The notes: generated from the letters alone by a model not told the origin. DNA of 64,000 bases from an uncultured virus (IMG/VR IMGVR_UViG_3300037067_013349) (IMGVR_UViG_3300037067_013349), one strand, 5' to 3'; shown: positions 5,466 to 60,542, numbered from the stretch's first letter. Numbers and translations are program-made.

Positions 5466-6812
5466 TTAGCTAATTTCAGTAGCTATACCATGGGCTATTA
5501 GTTGCAATCCGATTGTTGCTTCACATTTTTTGATGTCTTTTGGTGTACATCCAAGGAATCTAGCCATTCGATTCTTGTGTGGGATGCCCTGATTTACTCT
5601 CGGTGTATCGGGATATTCTTGGACAAATCGTTGGTAAATTGGCCCTGTCCCATACAACAATTGGAAAACTGCCTGGCAATTACCGTCAGGCAGGCAATCC
5701 TGTACGCGTAAAATAATCTCACGCGTATCGATGGCTCTGGCACTGTCTTCAAGCATGTTATGATCCTCCAACTGTGATATAACATCGATTGAATCACCAC
5801 CGTCACTGCGGTAGCCAACAACATTATTCACAATCTGAACTTCTGAATTGATTGATGCTGGAAATTCAGCATACGGCGATTGCCCTTGCATGTCACGAAT
5901 CAAGATGTGATTAGAAACTATTGTGACCTCGCCACCAAGAGACATAAGTCGTTCTCTGATTTCCCAAAAACGAGGGTAAAAGTCAGACGGCGGCAAAAGC
6001 ATTGGGTCACATGTAATAACGTAGCAAGGATATCCAACCGGGAGTAAATCATTACATTCTGGATAACCACTATAAACATGGAATGCTTTGATATCTGATA
6101 GAAGCAAATTAATCGCATCCGCTGCTATTTTGTCAGCTGGACCAAACAACCCGATTGTTTTCTTTTTATGCTTTGTTATTGGATTTTCAAGCAATATCTG
6201 TCTGAAGTAGTTCCAGATAAACGAACCGAAATATTTCTTCAATTGATCTGGGTCATTGAGAATCCGTTCTGGGTCCTCGACCTTTGATGCTCCACTTATC
6301 GCTCTAATGCAGCTTTTAATAATCGGTGGCCGCTTATGCTCTCTCTCTAAGCGATCTACCAAGTGCAAATATTCCTCTTGCGTTAATGAATCATTTATAT
6401 TAAAGATACTATCGCACGGATCGGAAATCAAGCAGCAATTACAGACTGGGCAGAAATCAAATTGCCGGTTGAAAGGAGTGATGCGATTGCTTTGACTCAG
6501 AAAAGAAGTGCTATCGCATAATGAACATTCGAAGCTGTAATCGGTGTGATATAGTAGATGAACAAGGCCACGCCAAACTGCTATTCTAAATTCTTCTTGT
6601 GCTGCATTAATATTATCATGGTAATCTGCAGCAATTGTTGATCCTAACTGATAAATAAATTCTTGTCGATGGCCAGCAAGGACTTCATGCTCTCCGACAA
6701 TAACCATTAATTCTTCGATTCTCATCTGCTCTTCCATCGTCAGATTTTTCATTGTGACGTTGGCGAGCGATCCACGCAAAAAGACTTCCGAAAGTTGTCT
6801 TACTTTGGACAT
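5466..6812 (-). CDS. Divergent RNA polymerase sigma-factor-like protein with zinc-binding insertion
   Basis: Region-2-like AQEEFRIAVWRGL ... FGSFIWNYFRQIL interrupted by CxxC...CxxC; C-terminal region-4-like HTH (LPDGNCQAVFQLLYG...NRMARFLGCTPKDIKK). Confidence 0.55.
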   Translation of the reverse strand: MSKVRQLSEVFLRGSLANVTMKNLTMEEQMRIEELMVIVGEHEVLAGHRQEFIYQLGSTIAADYHDNINAAQEEFRIAVWRGLVHLLYHTDYSFECSLCDSTSFLSQSNRITPFNRQFDFCPVCNCCLISDPCDSIFNINDSLTQEEYLHLVDRLEREHKRPPIIKSCIRAISGASKVEDPERILNDPDQLKKYFGSFIWNYFRQILLENPITKHKKKTIGLFGPADKIAADAINLLLSDIKAFHVYSGYPECNDLLPVGYPCYVITCDPMLLPPSDFYPRFWEIRERLMSLGGEVTIVSNHILIRDMQGQSPYAEFPASINSEVQIVNNVVGYRSDGGDSIDVISQLEDHNMLEDSARAIDTREIILRVQDCLPDGNCQAVFQLLYGTGPIYQRFVQEYPDTPRVNQGIPHKNRMARFLGCTPKDIKKCEATIGLQLIAHGIATEIS

Positions 6813-6865
6813 ACAAACATTCCTTCGTGTGTATTAGAAAATCTGGAAAAAGGAAATTCAAGTCG

Positions 6866-7513
6866 ATGGCTAAATATTGTGATACACAGGTACTGGAGCG
6901 AAATTGGTTCGAGTGGCTAGTTTCTAGTAATACACCAAGCATTGAAGCTCTGCGTGTCAAGGGCGTAGTATGGACTCTCATCATAGGTATGCTACCGGAC
7001 AGTAAAATACAAGATCCTTGTCACGAAACACGACTTCACTATATCATTCCGGACAATATCAGTTTTTGCACTACTGGTGATGTTATAGATTGGTTTATGC
7101 CAGGACGCATGAGTAGAGAAGAGATTGAATCTCAGGGGTACTATCAAGAAAAACCAGCTTCGCAAAGCTGGCAGGCTATGCTTCAAGATATTGCAAAAAT
7201 TTGCAATGGCATAGCGAGTAAATTCAATCAGCCATCCGCAGAAGAAACTAACAATCTTGCAAGTGAAGCGCTTGTTCAGGTCATCAGCAAAATTGATCGC
7301 GGAAAGTTGAAATATACTCCAGGACGAGCACCAGTGTTTAATCTTTTGACTACAACAATCCATCGTTGCATATATAGCATTCTAAGTAAGGACACACGAC
7401 AGAAAAAGAACTTCATCGCCTTCGCCGACAATTTGGTGATCGAAGAAACCGGTTCCGTTCGCTCAGGCTATAGTAGAACACACCTGAGGTCTCGTGTCAA
7501 GATTGATCATTAA
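6866..7513 (+). CDS. T4 gp55-like late sigma factor
   Basis: KYCDTQVL N-terminus; KICNGIASKFN...LASEALVQVISKI...YTPGRAPVFNLLTTTIHRCIYSILSKDTRQKK resembles gp55 region 2; no region 4. Confidence 0.7.
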   Translation: MAKYCDTQVLERNWFEWLVSSNTPSIEALRVKGVVWTLIIGMLPDSKIQDPCHETRLHYIIPDNISFCTTGDVIDWFMPGRMSREEIESQGYYQEKPASQSWQAMLQDIAKICNGIASKFNQPSAEETNNLASEALVQVISKIDRGKLKYTPGRAPVFNLLTTTIHRCIYSILSKDTRQKKNFIAFADNLVIEETGSVRSGYSRTHLRSRVKIDH

Positions 7514-7538: not shown

Positions 7539-8480
7539 ATGATTTCTAACTTAAGAGTACGACCGATAAATACAGGCCGACGAGAAGTTGTCTTACCACG
7601 AGCTGTGAGGCCCGCTGTCAAGCAGCAGCAATCAGTAACTAAAGTCTTGCGGGCTGCAATGCGCCCACAAGTATCTATGCCAAGGGCTATTCCACAAGTT
7701 ACCAGACAACCGCCGGTAATGGCCCGACGAGGAATAACGCCAAGGAAGCCAGTCGAAAGAGCTAGCAAACCGACTGTAAAAATTGTTACCCGTGACCCGC
7801 CCGAAGCCAGCATAAAGAAAATCCGCGAGCTGCGTAATAATTGTATTGGCCGTACGTTGGTTATAATCGGCAACGGCCCAAGTGTCTTAGAAATCGATAC
7901 AAAAAAGCTGCTTGATAATCCGTCTGTCGATATTATGTCGATCAATAAACCTGACTTGCGAGTATGGCCAACAAAATACTGGCTATTCTGTGATATCTCT
8001 CAACTAAAACGACATAATGATTTATGGTCTAAATATAATGGATGCATTTTTAATTCAACGATGATTGTCGACATGAGGCCGGGGACTATTTTCGTTAAGA
8101 ATATTCCCGGCTTCGGATTCAGTATGGATTTATCCAGAGGTTTTCATATTGGTCGATCAAGTGTATATGCTGCCATGCAAGTGGCTTTATGGCTAGGATA
8201 TGATAAGATATATATCTTCGGTATTGATATGGGAGCAGTTACCGTCGACGGCAAAGAAATGTTGCATTTCTATGGCGTGAATCAAGACTGTACTGCCGAC
8301 AATCGTAAGAAGAGATTCGCTGAAGAGGCCAAGTATTATGAAGACGCCGCTCACTCTTTACCTGCAGAGATAAGAGAGAAATTTTATTTCTGCAGTTCTT
8401 ATAACACATTCAAGTTTATTGATCATTTTAATAGGTTAGACCAGCACGAAGCTATAAAAATGATTTCTGGAAATGTGTAG
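7539..8480 (+). CDS. DUF115/MptE-like (Maf-type glycosyltransferase-like) protein with basic N-terminal extension
   Basis: IIGNGPSV, SSVYAAMQVALWLGYDKIYIFGIDM, HFY motifs. Confidence 0.75.
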   Translation: MISNLRVRPINTGRREVVLPRAVRPAVKQQQSVTKVLRAAMRPQVSMPRAIPQVTRQPPVMARRGITPRKPVERASKPTVKIVTRDPPEASIKKIRELRNNCIGRTLVIIGNGPSVLEIDTKKLLDNPSVDIMSINKPDLRVWPTKYWLFCDISQLKRHNDLWSKYNGCIFNSTMIVDMRPGTIFVKNIPGFGFSMDLSRGFHIGRSSVYAAMQVALWLGYDKIYIFGIDMGAVTVDGKEMLHFYGVNQDCTADNRKKRFAEEAKYYEDAAHSLPAEIREKFYFCSSYNTFKFIDHFNRLDQHEAIKMISGNV

Positions 8481-8487
8481 ATAAATT

Positions 8488-9120
8488 ATGCTAACATCTA
8501 CCATAACTTGCCCGTACTGTAATAATGAATTTTCAGCACCTGTATGGATTGACGGAAGCTGTGAAAAATGTGGCGGAAATTATTATTGGTCAATGGAGTT
8601 CAATGAAGAACTTACTGACGGTTGGCATGTTATAGAATGGGATCAAAGTAAGTCTATATATGTTGCTACTACGTTGTCAAATTGGAAGCGTGCAAGGGCG
8701 GTTTTAGACTTCTGTAGAAGTCTAAAAATTGATATATCATTCGATTGGACTGTATGGGGCGAAGAAATCGGAAAAGGGCCACGTGATTTAGATCCCAAAT
8801 CACTGCGCGAAAAAGCGTTACAGGAATATACAGGGGTAGCCAATGCATCTTATATATTAATAATATCACCAACCGGGCGTGGAACTAATTTTGAATATGG
8901 TGTTGCCTATCAGCGGATGATGAATGATAGTAATAAACCAGAAATAGCCATATTAGAGGAGGCCCGGTCTACCGAGCCCGTTAGTTTCCATTATCTCCCG
9001 GTTAAAAGATTCAGCTGTATGCGAAGTGCAATTACAGATATGTTAAATCATTTTGGCATCAGCATCAAAGATATAGATATTGATTTGGACGCACTTGGTT
9101 TAGGGGATCAGATATGCTAG
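8488..9120 (+). CDS. Zinc ribbon plus nucleoside 2-deoxyribosyltransferase / dNMP N-glycosidase-like domain
   Basis: N-terminal CPYC...CEKC; then IYVAT, FDWT, and GRGTNFEYGVAY (NDT GT-x-x-E-x-G-x-A catalytic Glu motif). Confidence 0.7.
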   Translation: MLTSTITCPYCNNEFSAPVWIDGSCEKCGGNYYWSMEFNEELTDGWHVIEWDQSKSIYVATTLSNWKRARAVLDFCRSLKIDISFDWTVWGEEIGKGPRDLDPKSLREKALQEYTGVANASYILIISPTGRGTNFEYGVAYQRMMNDSNKPEIAILEEARSTEPVSFHYLPVKRFSCMRSAITDMLNHFGISIKDIDIDLDALGLGDQIC

Positions 9121-9305
9121 AAAAAAACAAAATGCCATCAAAACCGGTGACGCCTGAAGGTACCAAACAGCAGAAATCATTTGCTGGGCCACACGGCGGT
9201 GGAACAGCTTATCATCAATTATCGGTCGGTACGAATTTTGCTGTCCATAATGCCATCCCAGGCCACACCCAAAAACAGAACGTCGAAATAAAGAAGCCAA
9301 AATAG

Positions 9306-9662
9306 ATGTCACTGACTCAAGAGCTATTTGAGATCAGAGGACAATTAGCTGCCGCCGCCCAAAAGGTCTATGATGATTGGAGTCCTGATGAATCGGGGCT
9401 CGATGATGAATTTGGCGGCGGCGGCATCTGTGACGCTGTTCAGCGTGCAATGGCTGATGTGATATCTTCGCAGGTAGACTGCAATCTAGAAGATGGCGGT
9501 TGGGAGGGCGATGACCATGCCAATCTTATAGCCTCAAGAGGCAGTGAAGAATGTATAGTTGATATCCCTGCACATGTTTATGAGACTGGTGGCGGTATGA
9601 ACTGGCAAAAATTGCCAGACGTGTTTATAGATGCACAAGATGTCATTATTGCCCCACTATAA
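9306..9662 (+). CDS. Hypothetical protein
   Basis: 118-aa acidic ORF (GGGICD...H...VDIP...YETGGG). Confidence 0.6.
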   Translation: MSLTQELFEIRGQLAAAAQKVYDDWSPDESGLDDEFGGGGICDAVQRAMADVISSQVDCNLEDGGWEGDDHANLIASRGSEECIVDIPAHVYETGGGMNWQKLPDVFIDAQDVIIAPL

Positions 9663-9707
9663 AATTCTGCAAGATCGTGTGATCTTTATTATACGTAATG
9701 TATTTGA

Positions 9708-10436
9708 ATGTCGACGTTACTCGACAAAACAAATAGGCATAACAAAATGTTATATTTCATAAGCCAGAAACTCGAATTAGACATTATGCAGGCTAGCGAG
9801 CTAGAGGAGGCAATGGAATTAGCTCACGTCCACAGGATGAACGCTGTAGTAGTCCATCCAGACCTGGTTGCAGATGCACTGATGCAGCGTGTTAAGCGAC
9901 AAGCAAAATACCGGATTTTGACTACAGTGGATTGGCCGAAAGGCGACAAAAGTAGTGTTGCTAAGTTTCATAGTATGTCAATTCATTCTCTGTCATGCGA
10001 CGGCTTCGAGATCGCTCTAGGCGTGAAGTCACAGGGAGAAACTAAAGCTGAGACATTGGCTATTACTGAATTTATTCGACGCCATTTGCCCGCCGTTCAT
10101 GAGATTCGATTTGTTCTGGGATGTCTATCCAGAGAACAGGAAGAAATCGAACGCCTATGTATGGCAATAAGAGAAGTCCCAGCACCGAATTTCTTACGGA
10201 CAGATATCAATCTTCGGTGTGCCCAAGCGAAAGCAAATATCGCTGCCCATGTGGCGTCACTTACTGCAATCAGAGCTTGCATAAACAGGCCCATCAAATT
10301 ATGTGGGAACATCAATTCTGCAAAAATCGTGGCTTCGTGTAAGGCCGATCGATATGGAGTAAGTCTAAAACAAGCACAAACTATAATTAAGGAACTAAAA
10401 GACAACCCAGCTAAGATAGACAAGCTCTTCAGATGA
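9708..10436 (+). CDS. DeoC (deoxyribose-phosphate aldolase)-like TIM barrel, divergent
   Basis: AVVVHP, TTVDWPKG, IKLCGNI, ADRYGVS match the DeoC pattern (AVCVxP, TVxxFPxG, xKxSGGI, AxRxGxS); the Schiff-base Lys position (FxKTST) reads FLRTDI. Confidence 0.65.
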   Translation: MSTLLDKTNRHNKMLYFISQKLELDIMQASELEEAMELAHVHRMNAVVVHPDLVADALMQRVKRQAKYRILTTVDWPKGDKSSVAKFHSMSIHSLSCDGFEIALGVKSQGETKAETLAITEFIRRHLPAVHEIRFVLGCLSREQEEIERLCMAIREVPAPNFLRTDINLRCAQAKANIAAHVASLTAIRACINRPIKLCGNINSAKIVASCKADRYGVSLKQAQTIIKELKDNPAKIDKLFR

Positions 10437-10612
10437 TAGCTAATACCGTCAAAGTTGGTATATTGGTTCGCATTTACAATCAAGAGCATATTTGGCATAA
10501 TGAAATAGGAATCATTCGCGCCATCTCACCAAGCGGTTTCTGTAGAGTTGAGCTTCTGGGAAAATTAGTATGGATGCCAGCTTCTTGGTTGATAGAGGTA
10601 GAGGAGAAGTAA
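10433..10612 (+). CDS. Small SH3/KOW-like beta-barrel protein (59 aa, not in the ORF track)
   Basis: MIANTVKVGILVRIYNQEHIWHNEIGIIRAISPSGFCRVELLGKLVWMPASWLIEVEEK; ATGA overlap with the upstream stop. Confidence 0.55.
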   Translation: MIANTVKVGILVRIYNQEHIWHNEIGIIRAISPSGFCRVELLGKLVWMPASWLIEVEEK

Positions 10613-10613
10613 A

Positions 10614-10949
10614 ATGATAGAATTTGATATTATCGATGAATTGGGAGATAACGCGGAACTACTGACAAAATCAGATTTGTGGTTGTCGACGGTAGAAGCT
10701 AAGCTAGCACAAAATCTGACTCTTTTATTACAAGACTTAGAGCAAGTACAAACTGCGATTAAGATTAAGCGCAGACTTCAGCAGAACAACAGAGTAGCAG
10801 TTAAGCGTCAAATTCGCAACAGCACAATCCCAGACGAAATAATCGAGATTCTGCCGCTGTCAAAAGCAGTAAAAGCAGCTAACCAGGGAAATCTGTCAGA
10901 TCAGGTTGGTGTATGGGCTGCTGATGGCTATGACATTCAATCTGTCTAG
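10614..10949 (+). CDS. Hypothetical protein
   Basis: 111-aa ORF with GAGGAG RBS. Confidence 0.55.
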   Translation: MIEFDIIDELGDNAELLTKSDLWLSTVEAKLAQNLTLLLQDLEQVQTAIKIKRRLQQNNRVAVKRQIRNSTIPDEIIEILPLSKAVKAANQGNLSDQVGVWAADGYDIQSV

Positions 10950-10959
10950 ACGGCTTGAT

Positions 10960-11856
10960 CTATCTTGATTTATTGGACTTGCCAGATTTGGCATTCAATC
11001 CATTTAGCTCGTCCAGTAATTGCTTTATTCTAGTCATCTCATCTAGATGTGATTGCCATTGTGCTCCAGATGGTAAGGCTGCACGAATGTTGGCGATCTC
11101 CAATGCGATTTCTGCATGTTTTCTTTTTAATTGCAGATATGGAATAATTTTTGGTAATATTTCACGTTGTTTCTCTGCCATCAACCTTATCGATCGTACA
11201 GGGCGTTTATTGTCTTTACCGCCACCAGCACGCAAAGAATTGACACCTAACTGTGATTCAAGATATCTGATAGTTTGTTGGTGTGCGAGAGCAATTTTGT
11301 GCACTGGTTTGATTGTGCAGCCGCCTTTGCCGAACTTAGCATTGATGATAGCCCCGTCGCCATCGGTCATTCCGGCCAGCCACGGCCAACTAAATTCATG
11401 TTCCCTTGGCTCTTGATCTTCTATAGCTCTCTTACCGACTTGGTTCAACTCACGCACTCTCCTATAGATAGAATCCCACAATTGTGATTCTTCTAGAGCA
11501 TAAAAGGAATTCTGACCATTTTTGACGTTTAACGCAGCTAATAACAGTTTAGCTTGCGGCTGCTTGGTATAGAGATGAGGGATCAGTTTGGGCAGGAGGC
11601 GACGAAGCTGGCCACCAATAATTGTAATCGTCCGTCTTGGTGAATGCCGTTTATTTCTGGGATGCGATCTTTGTTGGCTATGTCCAAGCAATTTACTTGC
11701 TGCCGGTATGATTATATCGTCCGTTGTGGAGATCCTAAGTCTGCAAGTACGTATTCTATAAGTGCGGCGTCCTCTTTTGGCACGCTTATAGGACATGCTG
11801 AAAGAACCCTCGGTGTCGATTACACCACATAACCATTTAATGTCGTGGTCAAACAT
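10960..11856 (-). mobile_element. Free-standing double-motif LAGLIDADG homing endonuclease
   Basis: WLCGVIDTEGSF and WLAGMTDGDGAI motifs, each followed by PHLYTK/PYLQLK; true start is probably the ATG at 11856, since the longer ORF overlaps purZ. Confidence 0.9.
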
Positions 11857-11877
11857 ATGGTATGTTTGACCACGACA
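11841..11877. promoter_or_regulatory. 17-bp perfect hairpin covering the LAGLIDADG start codon
   Basis: TGTCGTGGTCAAACATA-tgg-TATGTTTGACCACGACA. Confidence 0.8.
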
Positions 11878-11891
11878 GATGAAAGACAAAA

Positions 11892-13076
11892 ATGAGTGAT
11901 ACATATCGATTGCAGACGAACGCAAGCGGCGGAATGTTAGTTGTGACGACTGATGGTGGGGCTGGATCTTCTGGTAAAGGCTCCTTGAACTCTTGGATAG
12001 CTGATAAATGTACTTTCCATCTAGCCGCAAATAATTGGATGACAAATGCCGGGCACTATACCGAGCTCGACGATGGGACTCGCATACTAGTTCAGCATAT
12101 CCCGTCTGCATTTATCAACAAAAACACTGCCCTCTATATCGATGCCGGTGCTGCAATTGATCTTAAAACGTTGTTTGCAGAAGTAGCAAACCTGGAAGCA
12201 CTAGGATTTCCAATCCGCGAACGACTTACAATTCATCCGCTCGCGAATGTGATCACCGAAGAGAATAAACAATACGAGCGTGACACCATCAAGACTGGCA
12301 GCACGTTCAAAGGTTGCGGTGCTGCTATTGCTGCTAAGGCGATGCGTCTTACTCGCCAGAAGTTAGCGAGAGATTATGAAGAGCTGCGCGCATTTTGTAA
12401 GATCTGCGATCTTACGGCCGAGCTAAATATTGGCATATCTACCAAAGGTATGCGAGTGCTCATCGAAGGCTCGCAGGGCGTCGATCTGGACTTGAACTTT
12501 GCTGAATACCCATATTGCACATCGCGGCAAACGCACCCAACACAATTGGTCGCAGACGCTGGGCTGCCATGTCAAGCAGTTACCAATGTGATTATCAATC
12601 TGCGTACGAATCCAATCCGTATCAGTAACGAATCTGCAGCAACCGGCGAACACTGTTATACCGGCAACTACTGGGAAGCTAAAGAGATTGGGTGGGAAGC
12701 TGTTGCAAAACAAGCAGGGTATGACAACTTCGACGAATTTGTTGAGGAATACCAATACGCAATGATGACCTCTGTTACTAAGAAAGTCAGGCGCATCTTT
12801 GAGTTTCCAATCGAGAGAGCCAGATATGTCAATGCATTGGCTGGCGGGCTGCTGCCATCAAGCAACTTGCTATACAGCCTCAATTTTCTGAACTTCGTTG
12901 ATCGCACAATAAAGGGGAAGACGACTGTTGATGAAGTATTAACACCGAAGGTCAAACAATGGCTGGAGGACAACCTACTCGCAGTTATCAGAGAAAATGG
13001 TTGTGATGATAAAATTTGGTATGGGCTGCGATGGCTCAGAACCGGACCACGCCACAGTCAGATAGTTGAGCTCTAG
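11892..13076 (+). CDS. purZ: PurZ-type adenylosuccinate-synthetase paralogue (N6-succino-2-amino-dAMP synthase)
   Basis: DGGAGSSGKG (Ser in place of the PurA catalytic Asp), NAGH, GST, EGSQG, YPYCTSR, RTNPIRI, TSVTKKVRRIFEF, LNFLNF, TGP. Confidence 0.85.
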   Translation: MSDTYRLQTNASGGMLVVTTDGGAGSSGKGSLNSWIADKCTFHLAANNWMTNAGHYTELDDGTRILVQHIPSAFINKNTALYIDAGAAIDLKTLFAEVANLEALGFPIRERLTIHPLANVITEENKQYERDTIKTGSTFKGCGAAIAAKAMRLTRQKLARDYEELRAFCKICDLTAELNIGISTKGMRVLIEGSQGVDLDLNFAEYPYCTSRQTHPTQLVADAGLPCQAVTNVIINLRTNPIRISNESAATGEHCYTGNYWEAKEIGWEAVAKQAGYDNFDEFVEEYQYAMMTSVTKKVRRIFEFPIERARYVNALAGGLLPSSNLLYSLNFLNFVDRTIKGKTTVDEVLTPKVKQWLEDNLLAVIRENGCDDKIWYGLRWLRTGPRHSQIVEL

Positions 13077-13894
13077 TGATGAATATTAAGTTAGCTGCTT
13101 ATACGGACGAAGTTTTTGATGATCCAGATAAAGCCGGTGAGTTATTAGTCTCTAAAGGGATCACCCACGTTTGTTTGCGCCGCGCTTGGTGTCGTGATAT
13201 ATCAACGATGCCAGACAATGCTTTAAGTATATTGAATGATGTTTTGATCAAATACAACTTGCAGCCAGTGTTACTGCATACAGATATTGGATGCGTCGAA
13301 CCGCTTAAGTTATTATCTGAAGAGCCTAAGATTACTAGGGCCTTTCAGATATGCAAATTCCTTAAATGTAAGGCACTACGCATTGGGCTCGGCATCACTA
13401 CCAAAGATGCAAAAGAACAGCCAGATATTGTGCAGAAGTGGTTGTCAATTATTTCTGCATTAAGTATATCGTACGATGTAGCATTATTATTCGAGCCAGA
13501 ATTGAACAGTTACTACAGCCATCCTGCATCAATTGCCGTAGTTCTGAATAAACATCGAAGGGTAAATCTGTTATTTGACCCGGCAATGCTTGTGTTGCGA
13601 TCTAAAACAAATCCTTTCGTCAAATTTTGGTCCTTACTCAAATCCCGCGTGAATTTCATAGATATTCATGATTTTAAAAGTAGGGATTCAGCAAGGCCAG
13701 CTGGGGCAGGAGATGCTCAATTGGACGCTATTGTGTCTGATGCGTTGGCAGATGACTTCAAGGGGTGGTTCTGTATCGAACCCGGACTGGGCAAGCGGTA
13801 TGGTGATGCAACAACAAAAGATAAAACGTTCTTGCGTGCTCTTGACGCTTTTGAAGCAATGTTGAAAAGAACACATTTGTCTAAAGTTTTATAA
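13076..13894 (+). CDS. Xylose-isomerase-like / AP endonuclease 2 TIM-barrel metalloenzyme
   Basis: AAYTDE, LLFEP, LFDPA, IDIHD, GAGD, GWFCIEP metal-ligand pattern; translationally coupled to purZ. Confidence 0.8.
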   Translation: MMNIKLAAYTDEVFDDPDKAGELLVSKGITHVCLRRAWCRDISTMPDNALSILNDVLIKYNLQPVLLHTDIGCVEPLKLLSEEPKITRAFQICKFLKCKALRIGLGITTKDAKEQPDIVQKWLSIISALSISYDVALLFEPELNSYYSHPASIAVVLNKHRRVNLLFDPAMLVLRSKTNPFVKFWSLLKSRVNFIDIHDFKSRDSARPAGAGDAQLDAIVSDALADDFKGWFCIEPGLGKRYGDATTKDKTFLRALDAFEAMLKRTHLSKVL

Positions 13895-14121
13895 TGGAGA
13901 ATACGATGCCAATCAATATCTCTGGTGCTCTAGCCGAGATGCGTAAAGCTGGCTCAAAAGGTATCCGGACTATGCCGATGCCCGGTCAAGACATTAACAC
14001 AGGCTTTTACTTAATTGAGATTGCCAAAGATGGTTGTTGGGAGCCATTATTAGAGGGCCTGCCGCGTGCAACTGCTGAAAGTCTGATTGCACAGGCGACC
14101 AATCGCGTTATAATGGAGTAG
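13894..14121 (+). CDS. Hypothetical protein
   Basis: 75-aa ORF, TAATG overlap with the upstream gene. Confidence 0.55.
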   Translation: MENTMPINISGALAEMRKAGSKGIRTMPMPGQDINTGFYLIEIAKDGCWEPLLEGLPRATAESLIAQATNRVIME

Positions 14122-17434: not shown

Positions 17435-17811
17435 TGAATGAAGATACAATCAGGCGTCGTGGCACAGCACGAAAATTAGCGCGTGATGTGTTTTCGTTAA
17501 TTGCGGAAGAGGCATCCAATATACAGCCTGACGCTATTGATTCATTCTGGGATGAAATAAGAAAATCTCTACCGCAGCAGGTGACGGTCGTGGTCACGAA
17601 AGCCTGTGAAATGACCGTCGAGGAAGCTCGTAGATTTGGTATGTCTTTAATGCCTTTTGGAGAATTTAAAGGTCAACCAATTAATGCTATACCACTTAAT
17701 AGGTTAGAGTGGTATAGCGATTCTAAGTTTCAGCAAGAGCTTACTCGCTATTTAAATAGCCCAAATATCAAGCAAGAGAGAATGTTAAATGATCTGTCAG
17801 ACGACGATTAG
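17434..17811 (+). CDS. Protein with C-terminal DUF3820-like (MPFGxxKG) domain
   Basis: MPFGEFKGQPINAIPLNRLEWY. Confidence 0.65.
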   Translation: MNEDTIRRRGTARKLARDVFSLIAEEASNIQPDAIDSFWDEIRKSLPQQVTVVVTKACEMTVEEARRFGMSLMPFGEFKGQPINAIPLNRLEWYSDSKFQQELTRYLNSPNIKQERMLNDLSDDD

Positions 17812-18530
17812 CTTTTCTTCGCTAAGATCCAACACTGGCAGACATTACACTCTTCATTTGTAACTCGCCCATCGATTTGAATATCTTCATAGGTTGGCCA
17901 AGCGTGATTGTACCATAGTTGTTGTATATATCTATAATTTCCCCATTGCCCAATCTCTACGATTTCAAAATTAGCTGACGCAAATAACATTGCGAGCCCC
18001 GCTGGCGTAAAACCATTGAAATGGATTGGGGTTAAATGTGGTATATTTAGAGTTGGTACGCTTGTGAAAACATACCCTCCTGATCTTACAGCGTCATAGA
18101 TATTTTGGACAGCTAAAAAAGGATTATATAAGTGTTCTAATGTCTGATTAAAAATGAAGAAATCAAAGTAGTTTTGGAAATAAGATGACAGAGTATGAAG
18201 ATCATATTTTGGATAGCTGATAAGGGCTTGCTCTTCATATGTAACAAATTCGATTTCTGGGTCATTGTTCGTAAACCCTAATGCACAGCCATTTTTGATA
18301 TTGTGTTTATTAGTCCATTCAATAAAATCAAGTATGCACCATACTCTTGGAAAGTCTTTGCCTTTCCAAGAACAGCTCCAAGACTTCACTGGGCATGTAG
18401 GTAATGCTTCATATTTGGTGAAATAAGATGCAGGAAGGTGGATATGCGAATCATAAATCTTATAAATATCATGTTCCGAAAACAACTTCATGTGATAACT
18501 TTGCATATCAAAATTATCACATGAGAACAT
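17808..18530 (-). CDS. SAM methyltransferase (type 11-like)
   Basis: FDFFIFNQTLEHLYNP, VRSGGYVFTSVP motifs. Confidence 0.8.
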   Translation of the reverse strand: MFSCDNFDMQSYHMKLFSEHDIYKIYDSHIHLPASYFTKYEALPTCPVKSWSCSWKGKDFPRVWCILDFIEWTNKHNIKNGCALGFTNNDPEIEFVTYEEQALISYPKYDLHTLSSYFQNYFDFFIFNQTLEHLYNPFLAVQNIYDAVRSGGYVFTSVPTLNIPHLTPIHFNGFTPAGLAMLFASANFEIVEIGQWGNYRYIQQLWYNHAWPTYEDIQIDGRVTNEECNVCQCWILAKKS

Positions 18531-19279
18531 TCAAAGAACTGATGCTCTGTGCGACCAACGAGGATGCAATTTGGCCAAGTATAGAGTATTTATTTCATAC
18601 ACATTATGTCGATTCGTCAGTTACAACTCAACTTATACCCAGGATAATTCATCAAATCTGGCTTGGTAGCGAATTCCCGACCAAACTCCACAGACTACGC
18701 AACACCTGGATAGCTAAGCATCCAAACTGGCAATATCATCTTTGGACAGATAGGGATGTTGCTAGCTTTGGGCTTACTAATAAAAAGATGTTCGATTCTG
18801 CTCAGAATTTGGGGGCCAAATCTGATATATTCAGATATGAAATCTTATACCGGTATGGTGGACTATATATTGATACCGATTTTGAATGTTTTAAACCGCT
18901 TGATGACATGCTGCGTCTGGAATTTTTTACTGGTTGCGGCACTTCAGAAGCGATTTGGTTTAATGGCTTATTCGCATGTCGCCCCAATCATCCCATATTA
19001 GAATATTTGATATTACGCCTCGCATATAACAATTCGTCGAATTGGGACGAGATAATGCGAATGACAGGGCCAGGTTTCTTCACTCAAGCGGTCAATGCAT
19101 ATATTCACACTCATCCTGATACACCTCTAGTAGTTTTCCCATCTGCATTTTTCTACCCTGTCAAGAATGATATTAGATTCCAAATCAGAGAAGACACGCC
19201 AGCAAGCAGAGAGATAGTAAAACAGTATTTACATCCTGAATCGCACTGCGCCCATTTATGGTATTGTAGCTGGCAATGA
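18521..19279 (+). CDS. DXD glycosyltransferase (GT32/OCH1-like)
   Basis: IPRIIHQIWLG, SDIFRYEILYRYGGLYIDTD, TGPG motifs. Confidence 0.9.
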   Translation: MRTFKELMLCATNEDAIWPSIEYLFHTHYVDSSVTTQLIPRIIHQIWLGSEFPTKLHRLRNTWIAKHPNWQYHLWTDRDVASFGLTNKKMFDSAQNLGAKSDIFRYEILYRYGGLYIDTDFECFKPLDDMLRLEFFTGCGTSEAIWFNGLFACRPNHPILEYLILRLAYNNSSNWDEIMRMTGPGFFTQAVNAYIHTHPDTPLVVFPSAFFYPVKNDIRFQIREDTPASREIVKQYLHPESHCAHLWYCSWQ

Positions 19280-20115
19280 TAACATTTGCTGATTTGATAG
19301 TCGGTGAAAAGTTTGTGCAGGCCGCTGATTTCGTATTCTCTAGAGAATACGAGTTTGACTATCATAAACTTGAAAATACCTTCGATGTTTCAAAACTAAA
19401 AGACATCAATGTCGTGTATCTTCATACAGTCTTTAAAGATGATTTCTTCCGCCTCATTCGCGGTTTGCCACATCAATTTATAGTCATAAGCCATAATTGT
19501 GATACAAATGTTATCTGCGCTGATATGCCGCCAAATGTTATTCGGTGGTTTTCGCAAAATGTAGCTGTAAGAGACGATAGATTAGAGTCGCTCCCAATAG
19601 GTCTTGAAAATAGTAGATGGTTCCCGGAAGTCGATAAAAAACGCAAAATATTAGTAAAGATTCAGACAAACAAATCGATTAAAAATGTTGTCTATATGAA
19701 CCACAATATAGCAACAAATGAGTGTGAGCGATCCCACCCATATGAATTATTATCCAATAAAAGCTTTGTTACAACGAGGATGGGTTTAAATCCATACAAC
19801 TTTGACCAGTATCTAGATGACCTACACAGTCATCAATTTGTAGTATCACCAGCAGGAAACGGTATTGATACACATAGAAAATGGGAAGCTCTCTATGTTG
19901 GAACCATACCAATTGAGAAGCGATGTGTCAATAGCGTTTTTTACGAAGACCTTCCGATTTGTCTAATAGATGATTGGGAGCAAGTGACAGAAGAGTTTCT
20001 CGAATCTGAATATAGACGTATCACATGCACAATATGGAATCTTGAAAAACTCAAGATGTCTTGGTGGCTACATCACATTCAAAGTGCACGCCAATTTTCC
20101 CAGACAAATTCATAA
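19276..20115 (+). CDS. Exostosin/GT47-like glycosyltransferase
   Basis: FVVSPAGNGIDTHRKWEALYVGTIPI. Confidence 0.8.
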   Translation: MITFADLIVGEKFVQAADFVFSREYEFDYHKLENTFDVSKLKDINVVYLHTVFKDDFFRLIRGLPHQFIVISHNCDTNVICADMPPNVIRWFSQNVAVRDDRLESLPIGLENSRWFPEVDKKRKILVKIQTNKSIKNVVYMNHNIATNECERSHPYELLSNKSFVTTRMGLNPYNFDQYLDDLHSHQFVVSPAGNGIDTHRKWEALYVGTIPIEKRCVNSVFYEDLPICLIDDWEQVTEEFLESEYRRITCTIWNLEKLKMSWWLHHIQSARQFSQTNS

Positions 20116-20669
20116 TCATAAGTCAGATAGTGTGTTCGTCTTAGGCGGTTTCTTATAATCTGCCGCCTTGTCACGGCATTTTCTACAAACTGATGAAATT
20201 GGACTTGGATGTCTTTGATCATGTCTGTCGCTCTTATGTCGAGCATATGATCGAGCAAGTCGTACTCAGCCCCTTCAATATTTATCTTCATTAAACGTAT
20301 TTGCGATAGCGAATGCTTGCTGATTATTTCATCAATTGACACAACTTGAATGGTCTCTTGATTACTAGAATGAACAATGATACTTGATGCGTCATTATTT
20401 AACGATATTTTACACTCAGTTGTTATCGGCCCTATCCCACTATTATAGATTTGTACTGTAGTTCCGGCTAAATTGCGTAATGCTAGATTATAAAATGCCT
20501 TGACTGGTTCAAAGGCTAGTACTTTGCAATGATAACGCTCGTAGATTTGTCGGCTCCATTCACCATGATACGCACCGCAGTCTATGACAACATCATTAGG
20601 CATTGCAGCATAATTTAGCCTAAATGTTTTATCGCCATTGTCTGCTACCCACCGATCGAAGTCTGGCAT
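20079..20669 (-). CDS. FkbM family methyltransferase
   Basis: IDCGAYHGEW, AFEP, KINIEGAEY, QVQFH. Confidence 0.88.
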   Translation of the reverse strand: MPDFDRWVADNGDKTFRLNYAAMPNDVVIDCGAYHGEWSRQIYERYHCKVLAFEPVKAFYNLALRNLAGTTVQIYNSGIGPITTECKISLNNDASSIIVHSSNQETIQVVSIDEIISKHSLSQIRLMKINIEGAEYDLLDHMLDIRATDMIKDIQVQFHQFVENAVTRRQIIRNRLRRTHYLTYDYEFVWENWRAL

Positions 20670-20671
20670 TT

Positions 20672-21400
20672 TTAATCTTTCAAATGCAAATCAGTCACAT
20701 TGGCATGGCAATTACTGCTATCAACCATCCTGGGCCAATTTCCTTCAACAAATGTGACATCATGCTCTCCAGTACGATTTTCAACAAGTGGACTAAAAAT
20801 CCGACCATCTCCTAGCGTCCCAGCCCACCAGCTAAATGATGAATTCGCTCGCAATAATATTTCAGCATTCATTAGTGTTATAAAATCTTCTAAAAAAGGA
20901 ACGCCTGCATCGATCAAATCTTGATGTGGCTCTTTTCTTCCCTCTTGCACCCAGCAGATATCAGCCACATTTAACCCAAGCTTATTACATATGGCAATGT
21001 AAGAGTTTTCGCTGACTAGGCAATAGATATTGCTCAGACCCACATAGTCTCCTCTTCGGACATGTGCAGCTATTCGCGGACGAGATTGAAACCTCTGCTT
21101 CCACTTGTCTCTTAATGTGAACCAAGATTTCAATTTCGCCCGCGACATCATGTCTACAGCCGCCTGAGATTGAAAGTATCCATTTAATACTACGTTGATT
21201 CTGCCATTTGGAATCTCATCGAATCCAGCATGCGGCAAGTCATAATTTAGTGGTTGATTGGAAATATCGAATATTCTCTGCCCAATCCAACCAGGAGTTA
21301 ATAAAACGGCTCGATGGGCTTCTGCATAGGCACGAGCAAATGCATATTGAAATAGTTGATTTCCGAAGCCACCACAAAAATTAATACCAACAGCAGCCAT
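20672..21400 (-). CDS. Alpha-1,2-fucosyltransferase (GT11)
   Basis: GGFGNQLFQYA, GYFQS, HVRRGDY, NSSFSWW. Confidence 0.92.
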   Translation of the reverse strand: MAAVGINFCGGFGNQLFQYAFARAYAEAHRAVLLTPGWIGQRIFDISNQPLNYDLPHAGFDEIPNGRINVVLNGYFQSQAAVDMMSRAKLKSWFTLRDKWKQRFQSRPRIAAHVRRGDYVGLSNIYCLVSENSYIAICNKLGLNVADICWVQEGRKEPHQDLIDAGVPFLEDFITLMNAEILLRANSSFSWWAGTLGDGRIFSPLVENRTGEHDVTFVEGNWPRMVDSSNCHANVTDLHLKD

Positions 21401-21401
21401 T

Positions 21402-22040
21402 TTATCTCCTACCAGCTAGTATATGGTCAATGTTTTGTCTCAATGGAAAATCAAACGCACAGCCCAGTATATCAGATACACTGACTGACTGACGAAAGAG
21501 CATTGGATATATTCCATATGCCTTGATGTTGGTAAAATTTCTGGCATATATAACATCAATTGGTATGCCAGCTCCGACCAATGCTACAATACATTCTATA
21601 AGTTTTTCAAAACACTTCCCATTGACAGCATATGCGTGTGTTGTCAGAGCATCATTAAGATGTAGCATATGAGATGAGACAAGCGTAGGCGATACGCAAG
21701 CTGTAGGCTCAAGATTGTATCCTAAATATAGCATATCCCAATCTTCAGGGACTTGCTTACTACCTTCTCTCCAGATTGGTATCCAGTCTGGATATAATTC
21801 TGCATCATCTTCAAGTATTAACAAATTTTTCACATTGTCCGCTAAGGCTTGCCGGAGCATAGCTAAATGCGATTCAAGGCAACCCATCCAACCGGGCTTC
21901 TTATCGATTGCAGGAAATCTTATAGCTTTGGTAATGCAGGCGTGATGCAGTTGTTTTTGGATGCCCGCCCATCTATCAGTCCGCCTGTCCAAATTTAGTA
22001 CATAGATGCGATCGAAGAAATCTTGCATAGTATTGTCCAT
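21402..22040 (-). CDS. Glycosyltransferase family 25
   Basis: YVLNLDRRTDR, GCLESH, LILEDDA, WDMLYLG, THAYAV. Confidence 0.9.
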   Translation of the reverse strand: MDNTMQDFFDRIYVLNLDRRTDRWAGIQKQLHHACITKAIRFPAIDKKPGWMGCLESHLAMLRQALADNVKNLLILEDDAELYPDWIPIWREGSKQVPEDWDMLYLGYNLEPTACVSPTLVSSHMLHLNDALTTHAYAVNGKCFEKLIECIVALVGAGIPIDVIYARNFTNIKAYGIYPMLFRQSVSVSDILGCAFDFPLRQNIDHILAGRR

Positions 22041-22051
22041 TTTTTGATGCC

Positions 22052-22654
22052 ATGATCGACACACTTTCCGCCAGGCGTGAATTTCCATTGATTGTGACCG
22101 CCTATACTATATCTAGTCATCTCGGTGACTATTACAAACGATGTGTAACCAGACTAATACGTAGCTGTATTAATTTCGACTTGTCACATATAGTCTTGCC
22201 ACTAGAGCCGCAAGGTGGCTGGGATGCTGGATGTGCAACCAAAACCGTAGTAATACAACAATTACTTAGACAATTGCAAAGGCCGCTTCTATGGCTTGAT
22301 GCAGATGCCGAAATTTTGGCATATCCAAGCATGTTTGAAAATATTAATTGTGAGATGGCATTGGCATCTGTTTCTGGGCACTGGCTAAGTGGCACTCTTT
22401 ATTTTACACCAAGCGCTCTTCCATTTATTGAACGGTGGAAACAACGGACAGGCCCGGTTGTGGATGAAATAGCACTGAGAGAGGCTTATGCAGCTGCGAC
22501 AGCTGACCGACCTAAGATGATAATGTTGCCTGGATCTTACAATACAGCCATTCACGTAGGATGTGATCTTAGCAACGTAATTATTGGGCACCACATACGA
22601 CCTGATGTTGCGCCAACTAGAGGCGTTCAGGCGAATCCTGTGCCTGAACTCTAG
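22052..22654 (+). CDS. DXD nucleotide-diphospho-sugar transferase
   Basis: KTVVI...LLWLDADA, SGTLYF motifs. Confidence 0.75.
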   Translation: MIDTLSARREFPLIVTAYTISSHLGDYYKRCVTRLIRSCINFDLSHIVLPLEPQGGWDAGCATKTVVIQQLLRQLQRPLLWLDADAEILAYPSMFENINCEMALASVSGHWLSGTLYFTPSALPFIERWKQRTGPVVDEIALREAYAAATADRPKMIMLPGSYNTAIHVGCDLSNVIIGHHIRPDVAPTRGVQANPVPEL

Positions 22655-31417: not shown

Positions 31418-32221
31418 ATGGCCAACTTCCCGCCGGTTGTGCGAATTGAGACGACGAACGCATGCAATGCTAAATGTGTTATGTGCCCTCATAAGGATAT
31501 GCGACGTCCAGTTCGCATCATACCAGATAATTTATTTAGCAAGATTGTTGACGAATGCTCCAGACACAGGTTGGCAGAAGTACATCTACACAATTTCGGT
31601 GAGCCTCTGCTAGATGCGGATTTGGAGGACAAGATAAAACTTGTCAAACAGAAATGTAGAGTACGCACTAAAATCTTTACTAATGGATCTTTACTGACGT
31701 CAGATAGGATTAACAGGCTATTAAATAGCGGGATTGACGAAATCAAAATAAGTATAGATGGTTCAACACCGAAAGAATTCGAGCAAATTCGGCCTCCATT
31801 AAAATGGTCTGAAATATATAACAATATTAAAGCCCTCATTGAAACTCGCAATATACTAGAATTAAAAACCAGAATTTACATTACTGGTTGCACTGGACAA
31901 AGCGTCAGAAATCTATTTGATTTTCCAATAGATTTCGCTATAGGACCGAAGCATAACTGGGGAGGCCAATATGGCGATGAGAAAGCTGGCAGATTCGTTA
32001 GATGTAATAGATTGTGGAGGACTTTCACGATTCTTGTTGATGGGATGGTAGCGCAGTGTCATGCAGATGTACATGGGCAGTATTGTTTAGGAAATATCCA
32101 TAAACAGACTATAGAAGAAGTTTGGAACTGCCCAGAATATAACACCATCCGTGACATGCATACAAATTCACGGCAAGCAGAATTAGAATTATGCCGTAAT
32201 TGCTCCCAATGCAGATCTTGA
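31418..32221 (+). CDS. Radical SAM/SPASM protein
   Basis: CNAKCVMC (CxxxCxxC), GEP, and C-terminal C...DG..QC..D...C..C SPASM/twitch motif. Confidence 0.92.
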   Translation: MANFPPVVRIETTNACNAKCVMCPHKDMRRPVRIIPDNLFSKIVDECSRHRLAEVHLHNFGEPLLDADLEDKIKLVKQKCRVRTKIFTNGSLLTSDRINRLLNSGIDEIKISIDGSTPKEFEQIRPPLKWSEIYNNIKALIETRNILELKTRIYITGCTGQSVRNLFDFPIDFAIGPKHNWGGQYGDEKAGRFVRCNRLWRTFTILVDGMVAQCHADVHGQYCLGNIHKQTIEEVWNCPEYNTIRDMHTNSRQAELELCRNCSQCRS

Positions 32222-50256: not shown

Positions 50257-51309
50257 ATGAATCTAGATCAGTTAGCGAAGATACTTGAATCAGCAAAACT
50301 TCCGCAAGACTTATTCGGCGAAGACCCGGATCAGACTTATCGCGATTGGGCCAAAATTTGCCATCCGGATCGCTTTGCTTCCAGCCCGGACGAGACCAAA
50401 GAAAGGGCTAAACAAGTCTTCACTCTACTAGAAGAACGATTCAGCGATTCCAAAAAGAAGCCAGAAATTTGGACTCCAACCGACGCATGCATGGCACACG
50501 GCGTCGGCTCTCCTCATGAATATCATATCGGGCCACAATTAGGAAGTGGTGAAATCTCAAAAGTCCTTTTTGCTGTACGAAAAAGCAATAGTGATTTGGA
50601 TTCCGTTGTTCTTAAGATTGCACACGTAGAAGAAGCCAATGGCTATCTTGAAAAAGAAGCCAAAATACTCGCCGACATACGCTCCCAAGCTGGCGACAGG
50701 AAGTACGGAGAATATTTTCCAAAACCAATTGAATCATTTAAGCATGATAGCTTATTTGTCGCGGTTCAACAATACTACGATGGCTTTTATTCTCTCAGCG
50801 AAATCATAGCCAAACATCCAAATGGCCTCGGTAAAAACCACGGAAGACATTTGGCGTGGATGTTTAAGCGTATATTGACCGCTCTTGGGTTCGCCCACAG
50901 CTGTAATTACATACACTGTGCCCCTATCCCACCGCATCTACTATTCCATGTTGGGCGCGATGAAAACCATGGGTGCAAGCTGCTTAGCTGGGCAAATGCA
51001 CTGCGATCAGAGCAGAAGCTCGCTGTGGTTCCATTAAAGTATAAACCATGGTATCCGAAAAAAGAGATATCAAAACAATATCCAGCAACACCAAGTTTAG
51101 ATATTTTCTTGGCAGCCAAATCTATGCTCGAATTTGTCAAAACTGACAAATCTGGATCTGTTCCAGCTCCATTACAGTCTTTTCTTGAATCTTGCGTTGT
51201 ACAGAACCCTGTTACAAGACCACAAGACGCCTGGAAACTATTGGACGAGTGGAGCCAACTGCTTAAGAGAGTTTTTGGTCCGCCGTTATTCGTTCGCGTT
51301 GATATGTAA
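50257..51309 (+). CDS. J-domain plus degenerate Ser/Thr kinase-fold protein
   Basis: YRDWAKICHPDRF (HPD); LGSGEISKV, VVLKIA, alphaC Glu; HRD replaced by HCA and DFG by SWA. Confidence 0.8.
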   Translation: MNLDQLAKILESAKLPQDLFGEDPDQTYRDWAKICHPDRFASSPDETKERAKQVFTLLEERFSDSKKKPEIWTPTDACMAHGVGSPHEYHIGPQLGSGEISKVLFAVRKSNSDLDSVVLKIAHVEEANGYLEKEAKILADIRSQAGDRKYGEYFPKPIESFKHDSLFVAVQQYYDGFYSLSEIIAKHPNGLGKNHGRHLAWMFKRILTALGFAHSCNYIHCAPIPPHLLFHVGRDENHGCKLLSWANALRSEQKLAVVPLKYKPWYPKKEISKQYPATPSLDIFLAAKSMLEFVKTDKSGSVPAPLQSFLESCVVQNPVTRPQDAWKLLDEWSQLLKRVFGPPLFVRVDM

Positions 51310-52341: not shown

Positions 52342-52399
52342 GGCTCGCAGCAGGGTACCCAAGGGTCTTGGCTCTTGCCTGCTGCGAGCCCGCTTTTTA
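52342..52399 (+). terminator. Hairpin plus T-run between the VWA and PurA-like genes
   Basis: GGCTCGCAGCAGG...CCTGCTGCGAGCC followed by CGCTTTTTA. Confidence 0.6.
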
Positions 52400-52410
52400 T
52401 TGAGAGTACT

Positions 52411-60041: not shown

Positions 60042-60542
60042 TTAATCACAAACAAAGCCTTCTATCAAGCTATTGACGGCGGCATACAAACTCGCATCAC
60101 CATCTGTAAGCACTTCAAGCAGGTCTCGTTTTTCAGCAACGTATATTCTGGCGAAACCCTTATCATGCTCGATAATGCTCGGCACATTATCTAAGATGTC
60201 AGCCAGTTTTATGGTCTTAGCACGTGATGATGCAGCTGACAATCTTTGTTTATCTGTTTGCTTCCGGGCTGCACGATTTACGCCAATCCTTTTAGAAGTG
60301 AGATCCGCAACAAGCCCAGCTACATCGTGCCCAAACCCTGCCTCAATCATTTCGATGGTAACTGATGTATCCTCAACTACATCATGCAGCCAGGCAGCAG
60401 CAATCATCTCCACATCGTGAGGTACAGCAGACACAATCCGCGCAACAGATTCAGGGTGCACTACATATGGCTCTTTAGTGTATTTGCGCACTTGTCCTTG
60501 GTGAGCAGTACGGGCCAATTGGACTGCCATTTCAACTAGCAA
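60042..60542 (-). CDS. Small alarmone hydrolase-like HD protein (RelA/SpoT HD, Mesh1-like)
   Basis: AHQGQVRKYTKEPYVVHP, AAWLHDVVEDT, IKLADILDN. Confidence 0.88.
   Translation of the reverse strand: MLVEMAVQLARTAHQGQVRKYTKEPYVVHPESVARIVSAVPHDVEMIAAAWLHDVVEDTSVTIEMIEAGFGHDVAGLVADLTSKRIGVNRAARKQTDKQRLSAASSRAKTIKLADILDNVPSIIEHDKGFARIYVAEKRDLLEVLTDGDASLYAAVNSLIEGFVCD

Follow-up and report, generated by a model that had tools for sequence, protein, structure and literature searches.

DNA written with the Z base (2-aminoadenine) has so far been shown in small sipho- and podophages, which use either DatZ and MazZ or DutZ and DmtZ as helpers. The classic PurZ-DatZ-MazZ cluster is that of cyanophage S-2L and vibriophage phiVC8 (PMC8342488, PMC8065100). 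A paper published in 2026 (PMC12884076) shows for PurZ0 actinophages that the NDT-family enzyme DmtZ both hydrolyses dAMP and passes deoxyribose-5-phosphate on to the Z base, and that DutZ removes dATP and dGTP; E. coli DeoC serves there only as an assay reagent, and neither a phage aldolase-like gene nor a jumbo phage is mentioned. A preprint of 2025 (bioRxiv 10.1101/2025.10.22.683976) links PF05014 NDT genes to dZ-modified metagenome contigs, shows a dA-preferring nucleoside transferase and proposes adenine-nucleoside depletion as the role of NDT, with no mention of an aldolase, a xylose isomerase or a jumbo phage. Here we analyse a 64-kb stretch of DNA from an uncultured virus (IMG/VR IMGVR_UViG_3300037067_013349), hereafter the window, in which positions 8488-13894 carry genes for a PurZ-group synthetase, an NDT-fold protein, a barrel resembling deoxyribose-phosphate aldolase (DERA, or DeoC) and a xylose-isomerase-like TIM barrel.

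All genes that a first-pass annotation had named at 8488-13894 were found, namely those for the NDT-fold protein, the DeoC-fold barrel, a LAGLIDADG endonuclease on the opposite strand, the PurZ-group synthetase and the TIM barrel coupled to it. We lean towards reading the region as the nucleotide module of a variant Z-base pathway in an uncultured clade of T4-like jumbo phages, a module all of whose functional steps we infer. The annotation had called such a system undescribed, which stands in part: an NDT-family dAMP hydrolase (PMC12884076) and dZ-linked NDT genes (bioRxiv 10.1101/2025.10.22.683976) have been published, so that for other phages the literature already holds the central proposal of adenine nucleotides being drained by an NDT enzyme instead of by DatZ; the other parts were not found in print. 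The literature searched gave no account of a PurZ-type enzyme in a deep T4-like jumbo clade, of an obligate DERA-fold partner or of the separate NDT lineage of the window, although the supplementary gene lists of both papers may hold such rows.

Like the DmtZ system, the locus has a PurZ-group synthetase with an NDT-superfamily enzyme in place of DatZ and MazZ, and its relatives carry dUTPase-family genes. It differs in that the window PurZ groups with phiVC8-type PurZ and not with the PurZ0 reference (support 96/90, in a small tree with one such reference), in that its NDT protein forms a lineage of its own, has a zinc ribbon as an additional domain and shows no similarity to DmtZ that could be detected, its gene being neither fused to nor adjoining a dUTPase, and in that this protein is paired with a DERA-fold protein, which PMC12884076 does not mention. 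The carriers differ as well, being T4-like contigs of 75-408 kb here and actinophages of ~40-70 kb for DmtZ. With the dZ contigs of the preprint the locus shares the co-occurrence of a PF05014-type NDT with PurZ in aquatic phage contigs; there, however, the NDT stands with DatZ and PolA, is not beside purZ and has a nucleoside substrate, whereas the window NDT gene lies ~3 kb upstream of purZ and without DatZ. The window PurZ has Ser at the Asp13 position and common specificity residues, as in S-2L and phiVC8; by contrast, no DatZ (YfbR-like/HD_3) or MazG-type gene was found in the window or in four relatives, and in phiVC8 the HD gene is two genes from purZ.

A PurZ-group synthetase and its NDT- and DERA-fold neighbours

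The synthetase gene (11892-13076, plus strand, 394 aa) encodes an adenylosuccinate-synthetase homologue of the succino-amino-deoxyadenylate synthase type. It matches PF00709 (5e-24) and phrog_1211 (3e-46), and its best NCBIfam family is the PurZ model NF038379 (1.2e-50, 172.4 bits, below the 300-bit cut-off). Its closest solved relatives are a short archaeal synthetase (2e-27) and phiVC8 PurZ (1e-26), followed by the PurA-like phage enzyme 7vf6 (8e-25) and S-2L PurZ (2.5e-21). A tblastn search against GenBank phages gave 203 matches, and the 40 listed are all adenylosuccinate-synthetase genes, with phiVC8-like vibriophages, actinophages and Acinetobacter phages among their sources.

The window protein and 19 jumbo homologues were aligned with phiVC8 PurZ, Litotes PurZ0, a Bacillus phage homologue and E. 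coli PurA, leaving out the intein-bearing L017 and the near-duplicate loci L025-L027 and L032. The position of Asp13 in E. coli PurA is Ser in the window PurZ (G-A-G-S-S-G-K-G) and in the 19 other jumbo sequences (20/20); the Asp is kept in E. coli PurA and in a second adenylosuccinate synthetase (AdSS) of the window. The list of phiVC8 PurZ specificity residues was taken from the preprint, which ties F12, S14, T262, F295 and Y298 to dGMP's 2-amino group and the ATP ring (bioRxiv 10.1101/2025.10.22.683976). S14, P233, Y244, T262 and F295 are conserved in 20/20 jumbo sequences and W252 in 19/20, and at position 298 Tyr stands in 14 sequences and Phe in six, the window protein among these; the equivalent of F12 varies (A, W, F, H or Y). 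None of the phiVC8 PurZ residues at these seven positions (S14, P233, Y244, W252, T262, F295 and 298) is shared by E. coli PurA or the second AdSS. In a 25-row tree, built with three named PurZ-group references and one PurA reference and containing several long branches, the 23 Ser-type sequences split from E. coli PurA and the second AdSS with support 100/98, and the lone PurZ0 reference falls outside the remaining Ser-type sequences (96/90). Family membership and conserved specificity residues place the window enzyme in the PurZ group, as a divergent lineage of it; the PurZ identity given in the first-pass annotation is supported by the Ser at the Asp13 position, the phiVC8 PurZ residues that are kept and the clade of Ser-type sequences in the tree.

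Several observations concern the history of purZ. In L013 (11238-12509), a close relative with neighbouring genes 66-85% identical to those of the window, PurZ is yet 29% identical to the window's and 57-58% identical to the PurZ of L063/L064, while the PurZ of the distant L023 (11475-12659) and L062 is 62-63% identical to the window's. These identities are discordant with those of the neighbours, so that PurZ lineages do not track the phage backbone, and this suggests gene replacement of purZ at a fixed site, in which the adjacent homing endonuclease could perhaps assist. The purZ of L017 (11750-15388) forms an open frame of 1212 aa, in which the conserved N-A-G-H motif is followed by a large insertion that bears LAGLIDADG and probably represents one intein or several. 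The second AdSS homologue of the window (52375-53604, plus strand, 409 aa), preceded by a kinase-like gene (50257-51309) and a phrog_2971 gene (51342-52331), has its catalytic Asp and an odd P-loop, G-D-C-C-K-G; it is present in four close relatives and not in the 98%-complete contig of L019. It was ruled out as a true PurZ, since it keeps the Asp and is nearest to E. coli PurA (3.5e-23).

The NDT-superfamily gene (8488-9120, plus strand, 210 aa) gave no Pfam match at E≤0.1 and no PHROG match, and a profile search of its family against PDB sequences found nothing meaningful. PF05014 was detected in 1/18 of its homologues (3.4e-6) and in all five syntenic orthologues tested from distant loci (1.7e-9 to 7.9e-6, three above the cut-off). 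In the AlphaFold2 model (mean pLDDT 82.6) residues 1-50 form a zinc-ribbon-like beta domain with four Cys, and residues 53-192 a flavodoxin-like domain of the NDT/DNPH1 fold with VIA-align Z 11.5-10 to NDT, RCL/DNPH1 and MilB chains, tied with TIR domains; Foldseek of the model was weak, with RCL as the top row (probability 0.98, E 0.019). The domain has the fold of DNPH1/Rcl and MilB (Z 10.9 and 10.2) and their Glu-bearing motif, whereas the identity is ~10% and the N-terminal zinc ribbon is an addition. The family has 22 database homologues, and an alignment of 17 of them plus the window protein (18 rows) shows Y58 and E136 to be invariant in 18/18, with the motif G-x-G-T-x-F-E-x-G around the Glu, and the likewise invariant D86, D100 and E113 are candidates for the third triad residue. 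The NDT fold with a catalytic Glu, which had been claimed, is upheld by the structural matches over 53-192 and by the invariance of E136 and Y58. In nucleoside-specific NDTs an acidic residue six positions before the Glu holds the 5'-OH; the window protein, like DNPH1/Rcl and MilB, has no acidic residue there. PMC12884076 notes that DmtZ too is without it. By sequence the window NDT lies outside the monophyletic DmtZ group, and it may nevertheless work like DmtZ.

The DeoC-like gene (9708-10436, plus strand, 242 aa) has its likely start at 9747, as the homologues begin at a Met that is residue 14 of the frame. Its model is confident (pLDDT 91.0, pTM 0.88), and the Foldseek matches listed are all deoxyribose-phosphate aldolases or derived designs (best E 1.2e-10, TM 0.72/0.79), so that the DeoC-like barrel named earlier does have a DERA-type fold in the model. 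In sequence comparisons, hhalign of the family against E. coli DeoC was not significant and a profile search against PDB sequences gave nothing meaningful; an ESM Atlas search returned unnamed clusters at 0.84-0.86 and one DeoC-named cluster at 0.78, which serves as a lead only. A profile search of 1.84 billion protein representatives found 219 DeoC-like clusters, a number that we take to be too small to include the canonical aldolases. A complex prediction of the NDT and DeoC-like proteins scored 0.00, which is uninformative either way.

The 135 listed representatives of at least 200 aa (15 shorter ones were left out) were aligned with the window protein to give 136 rows. K86 is present in 136/136, R134 and K197 each in 126/136, and position 164 on strand 6 is Arg in 130/136 and Lys in 6/136; in the six Lys-164 members position 134 is Cys or Ile, and position 197 is occupied by Ile, Val, Thr or Ala. 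The R-R-K pattern at 134-164-197 occurs in 124 rows, and a Lys stands at 164 or at 197 in 132/136. The conserved E101, R134, R164 and K197 of the window protein lie on model strands 4, 5, 6 and 7, where we take the corresponding residues of E. coli DERA to be D102, K137, K167 and K201; R164 was matched to K167 by strand register and family conservation, not by residue-level superposition. Thus the protein resembles DERA in its eight-stranded barrel, its strand-4 acidic residue, its strand-7 Lys and the G-N after strand 7, presumably the phosphate-binding place of DERA, and it differs in the Arg at the presumed strand-6 Schiff-base position, the Arg on strand 5 and the lack of a PF01791 match. 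The fold is that of DERA; by family conservation and strand register the canonical Schiff-base Lys is very probably missing from the window protein, and it may have been relocated. The caveat of the first-pass annotation on an Arg at that position is thereby extended to most of the family, with the position assigned by strand register.

Conservation of the locus and the helper genes sought

The window encodes a prohead protease of T4 type, a clamp loader, an SbcC-like nuclease subunit and many glycosyltransferases and methyltransferases, so that it looks like part of a large T4-like phage and its source like an uncultured T4-like jumbo-phage clade. A DNA search of the region against 50,697 GenBank phage records gave 0 matches, as did protein searches with the NDT, DeoC-like and TIM-barrel proteins and the products of the genes at 5466 and 7539, and therefore no cultured relatives are at hand for comparison.

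The whole block is common to four close relatives, whose contigs are 234-388 kb long. Scanning with the DeoC-like alignment yielded 24 loci, of which four repeating the close-relative contigs were dropped; of the remaining 20, L024-L028 are near-identical with each other, as are L031 and L032. PurZ was matched in all 20, NDT in 17 (not in L018, L031 and L032) and the TIM barrel in 18 (two by partial tblastn matches only; not in L031 and L032); in L018 an NDT-like gene is present elsewhere on the contig, that is, moved. Three more contigs came from a second scan, for which the flanking gene 5466-6812 was the anchor: L059 holds the complete core trio, L049 has the DeoC-like gene and a PurZ truncated where the contig ends, with no NDT match, and L060 stops short of the block. 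A third scan, with the six-sequence Lys-164 subfamily against viral contigs, gave three further loci (L062-L064) with DeoC-like proteins at 27-28% identity to the window's. In all three an NDT-like open reading frame (ORF), with a weak PF15891 or PF05014 match, overlaps the start of the DeoC-like ORF, PurZ lies 0.4-2.5 kb downstream and the TIM barrel is absent; L062 and L063 have a dCMP deaminase between the genes and, after purZ, a gene with a metallo-beta-lactamase fold.

The most distant loci keep the trio but not the TIM barrel, and the conserved core thus consists of NDT, DeoC-like and PurZ. Of the four-gene cassette proposed at first, the linkage of these three genes stands and the place of the TIM barrel does not, given its absence from L031/L032 and from 3/3 of the most distant loci; the co-occurrence with purZ in related contigs, to which the annotation had pointed as a check, was found in each informative contig, down to 27% DeoC-like identity. 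The metallo-beta-lactamase-fold genes that stand at the TIM-barrel place (L062 8295-9251, L063 7358-8173) match the anti-Pycsar Apyc1 family (~1e-18 to 1e-19).

The absence of a canonical datZ or mazZ from the window, noted in the first pass, holds for the 93 window ORFs scanned against Pfam, and it extends to four relatives, two of them 99-100% complete, in which PF12917 (YfbR-like), PF13023 (HD_3) and PF03819 (MazG) were not found; as a positive control, PF12917 detected the DatZ of phiVC8 (2.6e-15). DUF550 and DUF5664 searches were empty in the relatives, and these matched in no control genome either. The relatives also gave no PurB-type lyase (PF00206) and no family-B polymerase match, and a weak family-A polymerase match in 4/4. 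One HD protein of the window (60042-60542, minus strand) was considered as a DatZ and ruled out, as its matches are to (p)ppGpp hydrolases of the SpoT/Mesh1 type and include no DatZ structure; this HD_4 protein (4.9e-18 to Lmo0812, phrog_990) may be a phage alarmone hydrolase.

Genes of the dUTPase family occur in 4/4 relatives, two in each of the complete ones; their tblastn matches are generic and their motifs uninformative as to DutZ-likeness. In the 388-kb relative (L006 1495-1986, minus strand; L010 1426-1920, plus strand) one has canonical motifs, and in the other, which adjoins a thymidylate-kinase-like gene, the third motif is altered, so that its product is a candidate dATP/dGTP hydrolase of DutZ type.

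Proposed pathway and competing explanations

In the pathway that we propose, PurZ would condense dGMP and aspartate to a succino intermediate, as its family membership and specificity residues suggest, and a host PurB-type lyase would convert this intermediate to dZMP. The NDT-fold protein would take the role of DatZ or DmtZ by splitting dAMP into adenine and deoxyribose-5-phosphate and, by analogy with DmtZ, may transfer the sugar phosphate to the Z base. The DERA-fold protein, in what is the most speculative step, would act on the sugar-phosphate product and so pull the removal of adenine nucleotides forward, and it would not use the canonical beta-6 Schiff-base lysine. The TIM barrel would be a clade-specific accessory and the LAGLIDADG gene a selfish insert.

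A number of points weigh against this pathway. The functions are assigned from sequence and predicted structure. The DeoC-like protein matches no Pfam family at E≤0.1, PF01791 included, and has no Lys at the presumed Schiff-base position. The NDT protein gave an hhalign probability of 0.26% against the Litotes DmtZ-DutZ fusion and no tblastn match in the 50,697 phage records, hence no detectable relation to DmtZ, and the two dUTPase-family genes of the relatives could perform dATP removal instead. The phiVC8 F12 position, said to help fit the 2-amino group, is Ala in the window type, and two adjacent genes with Eco57I/N6-adenine DNA-methylase-like domains (55999-58015, minus strand) would be of little use if every A were Z. 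Finally, all contigs belong to one broad clade in which the flanking genes (SbcC, 4935, 5466, 6827 and 7539) are syntenic too, so that the adjacency could be an inherited order instead of a functional one, and the scans, including that anchored on 5466-6812, contained no clade member without purZ in which a co-loss might be seen.

The last point bears on a different explanation, which we consider unlikely: the genes would adjoin through an order inherited in the T4-like core, with the NDT-like and DeoC-like proteins serving general deoxynucleotide salvage or the recycling of host nucleotides, unrelated to PurZ. Flanking genes without a nucleotide link do hold the same order in the same loci, PurZ has been swapped independently of the DeoC-like gene (in L013 the DeoC-like protein is 81% and PurZ 29% identical), and in L062 and L063 the dCMP deaminase that separates the genes suggests a cluster for nucleotide metabolism in general. 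The trio persists, however, where the flanks change, as in L062 with its T4-like portal gene nearby and in L062-L064 without the TIM barrel, the NDT and DeoC-like ORFs overlap in distant loci, and two papers already tie NDT-type enzymes to Z pathways. Quite unlikely, in our estimate, is that the PurZ-like enzyme gives no fully Z-substituted genome, because it has another substrate or product or because the replacement is partial. The variable F12 equivalent, the score below the curated NCBIfam PurZ cut-off, the adenine-methylase-like genes in the window and the failure to find DatZ or MazZ in the window and four relatives would all agree with it, but the Ser and Thr positions that the literature links to the 2-amino group are kept in 20/20 sequences, and the intein in the purZ of L017 suggests an important gene.

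We give little credence to a further explanation, in which the DeoC-fold protein, the TIM barrel or both act on the product of PurZ instead of on deoxyribose-5-phosphate, for instance as a non-homologous fumarate-releasing lyase or in a further modification of Z. In its favour, no PurB-type lyase (PF00206) was found in the four relatives and the TIM-barrel start is coupled to the purZ stop; the invariant Arg-rich barrel positions R134 and R164 could bind carboxylates, and the xylose-isomerase-like superfamily includes dehydratases, one of which, AsbF, is the best PDB profile match of the TIM barrel (0.0025). To our knowledge, however, the known Z phages likewise have no PurB and rely on the enzyme of the host, several loci do without the TIM barrel, and in distant loci the DeoC-like gene is translationally coupled to the NDT gene and not to purZ.

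With the Z-pathway module as the preferred reading, a bolder form of it can be stated, which we put forward as tentative and rather doubtful: the whole deep clade would write its DNA with 2-aminoadenine and exclude adenine by a third strategy, as yet undescribed, in which an NDT-type dAMP glycosidase is coupled to a DERA-derived enzyme whose catalytic Lys, once on strand 6, now stands on strand 7 (R-R-K, against C-K-hydrophobic variants) and which destroys or converts deoxyribose-5-phosphate, so that the removal of adenine nucleotides cannot reverse. If the module works as proposed, Z genomes would extend to large T4-like phages, and a third helper set would add to the case for a convergent evolution of adenine exclusion. 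It would also point to an uncharacterised DERA-fold protein family (219 clusters at 50% identity), whose chemistry could be tested with deoxyribose-5-phosphate, and would offer new parts for Z-DNA production in cells.

Other genes of the block and of the window

The xylose-isomerase-like (AP_endonuc_2) TIM barrel (13076-13894, plus strand, 272 aa) matches PF01261 with 1.1e-6 and 29 bits, against a cut-off of 31.1 bits, and 14/20 members of its family match it as well (best 1.7e-12). A GTG at 13076 overlaps the TAG that ends purZ (13074-13076), and an ATG follows at 13079, so that the start overlaps or directly follows the purZ stop and the coupling of the two genes noted earlier is confirmed. 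In the family E140 is nearly invariant, D168 and D199 are invariant, H198 is Arg in distant members and E235 is present in most; these residues are candidates for the Glu-Asp-His-Glu metal-site ligands of xylose-isomerase-like barrels. Because it is absent from the most distant loci, the TIM barrel is a lineage-specific accessory.

The LAGLIDADG homing endonuclease (10960-12111, minus strand, 383 aa) is a selfish mobile insert, with matches to PF00961 (LAGLIDADG_1; 25.9 bits, above the 23.1-bit cut-off) and phrog_5046 (2.5e-27). Its true start probably lies downstream of the first ATG, since homologues align only from residue 52-70. Among the four close relatives it is present in L002 and L003 and absent in L001 and L004, and a 40%-identical copy occupies the same site upstream of purZ in the distant L063.

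The block belongs to a dense run of plus-strand genes (7539-14121) broken by one minus-strand gene. A promoter and terminator scan gave no more sites than in shuffles. Directly 5' of the NDT gene, an MptE-like/DUF115-type protein (7539-8480, plus strand, 313 aa) is part of the conserved block and keeps its place in related loci; it matches PF01973 below the cut-off (1.8e-4), and 9/10 of its orthologues show weak matches to the same family (best 4.1e-8, 33.6 bits against a 34.6-bit cut-off). The remaining ORFs of the run are all on the plus strand. A small one of 63 aa (9114-9305) is 79-89% identical in five close relatives, which exceeds the neighbouring genes, and one of 118 aa (9306-9662) is confined to part of the close subclade, with matches in L001, L003 and L013 and none in L002, L004 or the distant loci. 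An ORF of 59 aa (10433-10612) overlaps the stop of the DeoC-like gene and is kept in many relatives, and a conserved one of 111 aa (10614-10949), between the DeoC-like gene and purZ, shows 30-75% identity in most related loci. At the 3' end of the block a conserved 75-aa ORF (13894-14121) has matches in 20/20 DeoC-anchored loci and in the close-relative loci.

Between the SbcC-like gene and the module lie two genes conserved clade-wide, at 5466-6812 (minus strand), whose product has conserved Cys pairs, and at 6827-7513 (plus strand); GenBank phages and Pfam gave no match to either product. At 17808-22088 and 122-2072 lie islands of methyltransferases, FkbM-type and others, and of several glycosyltransferase families, and at 31418-32221 a radical SAM/SPASM gene. 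The D123 family is known mostly from eukaryotes, and a member of it (PF07065, 6.9e-18) is encoded at 63206-64000 on the plus strand, where the gene runs off the end of the window.

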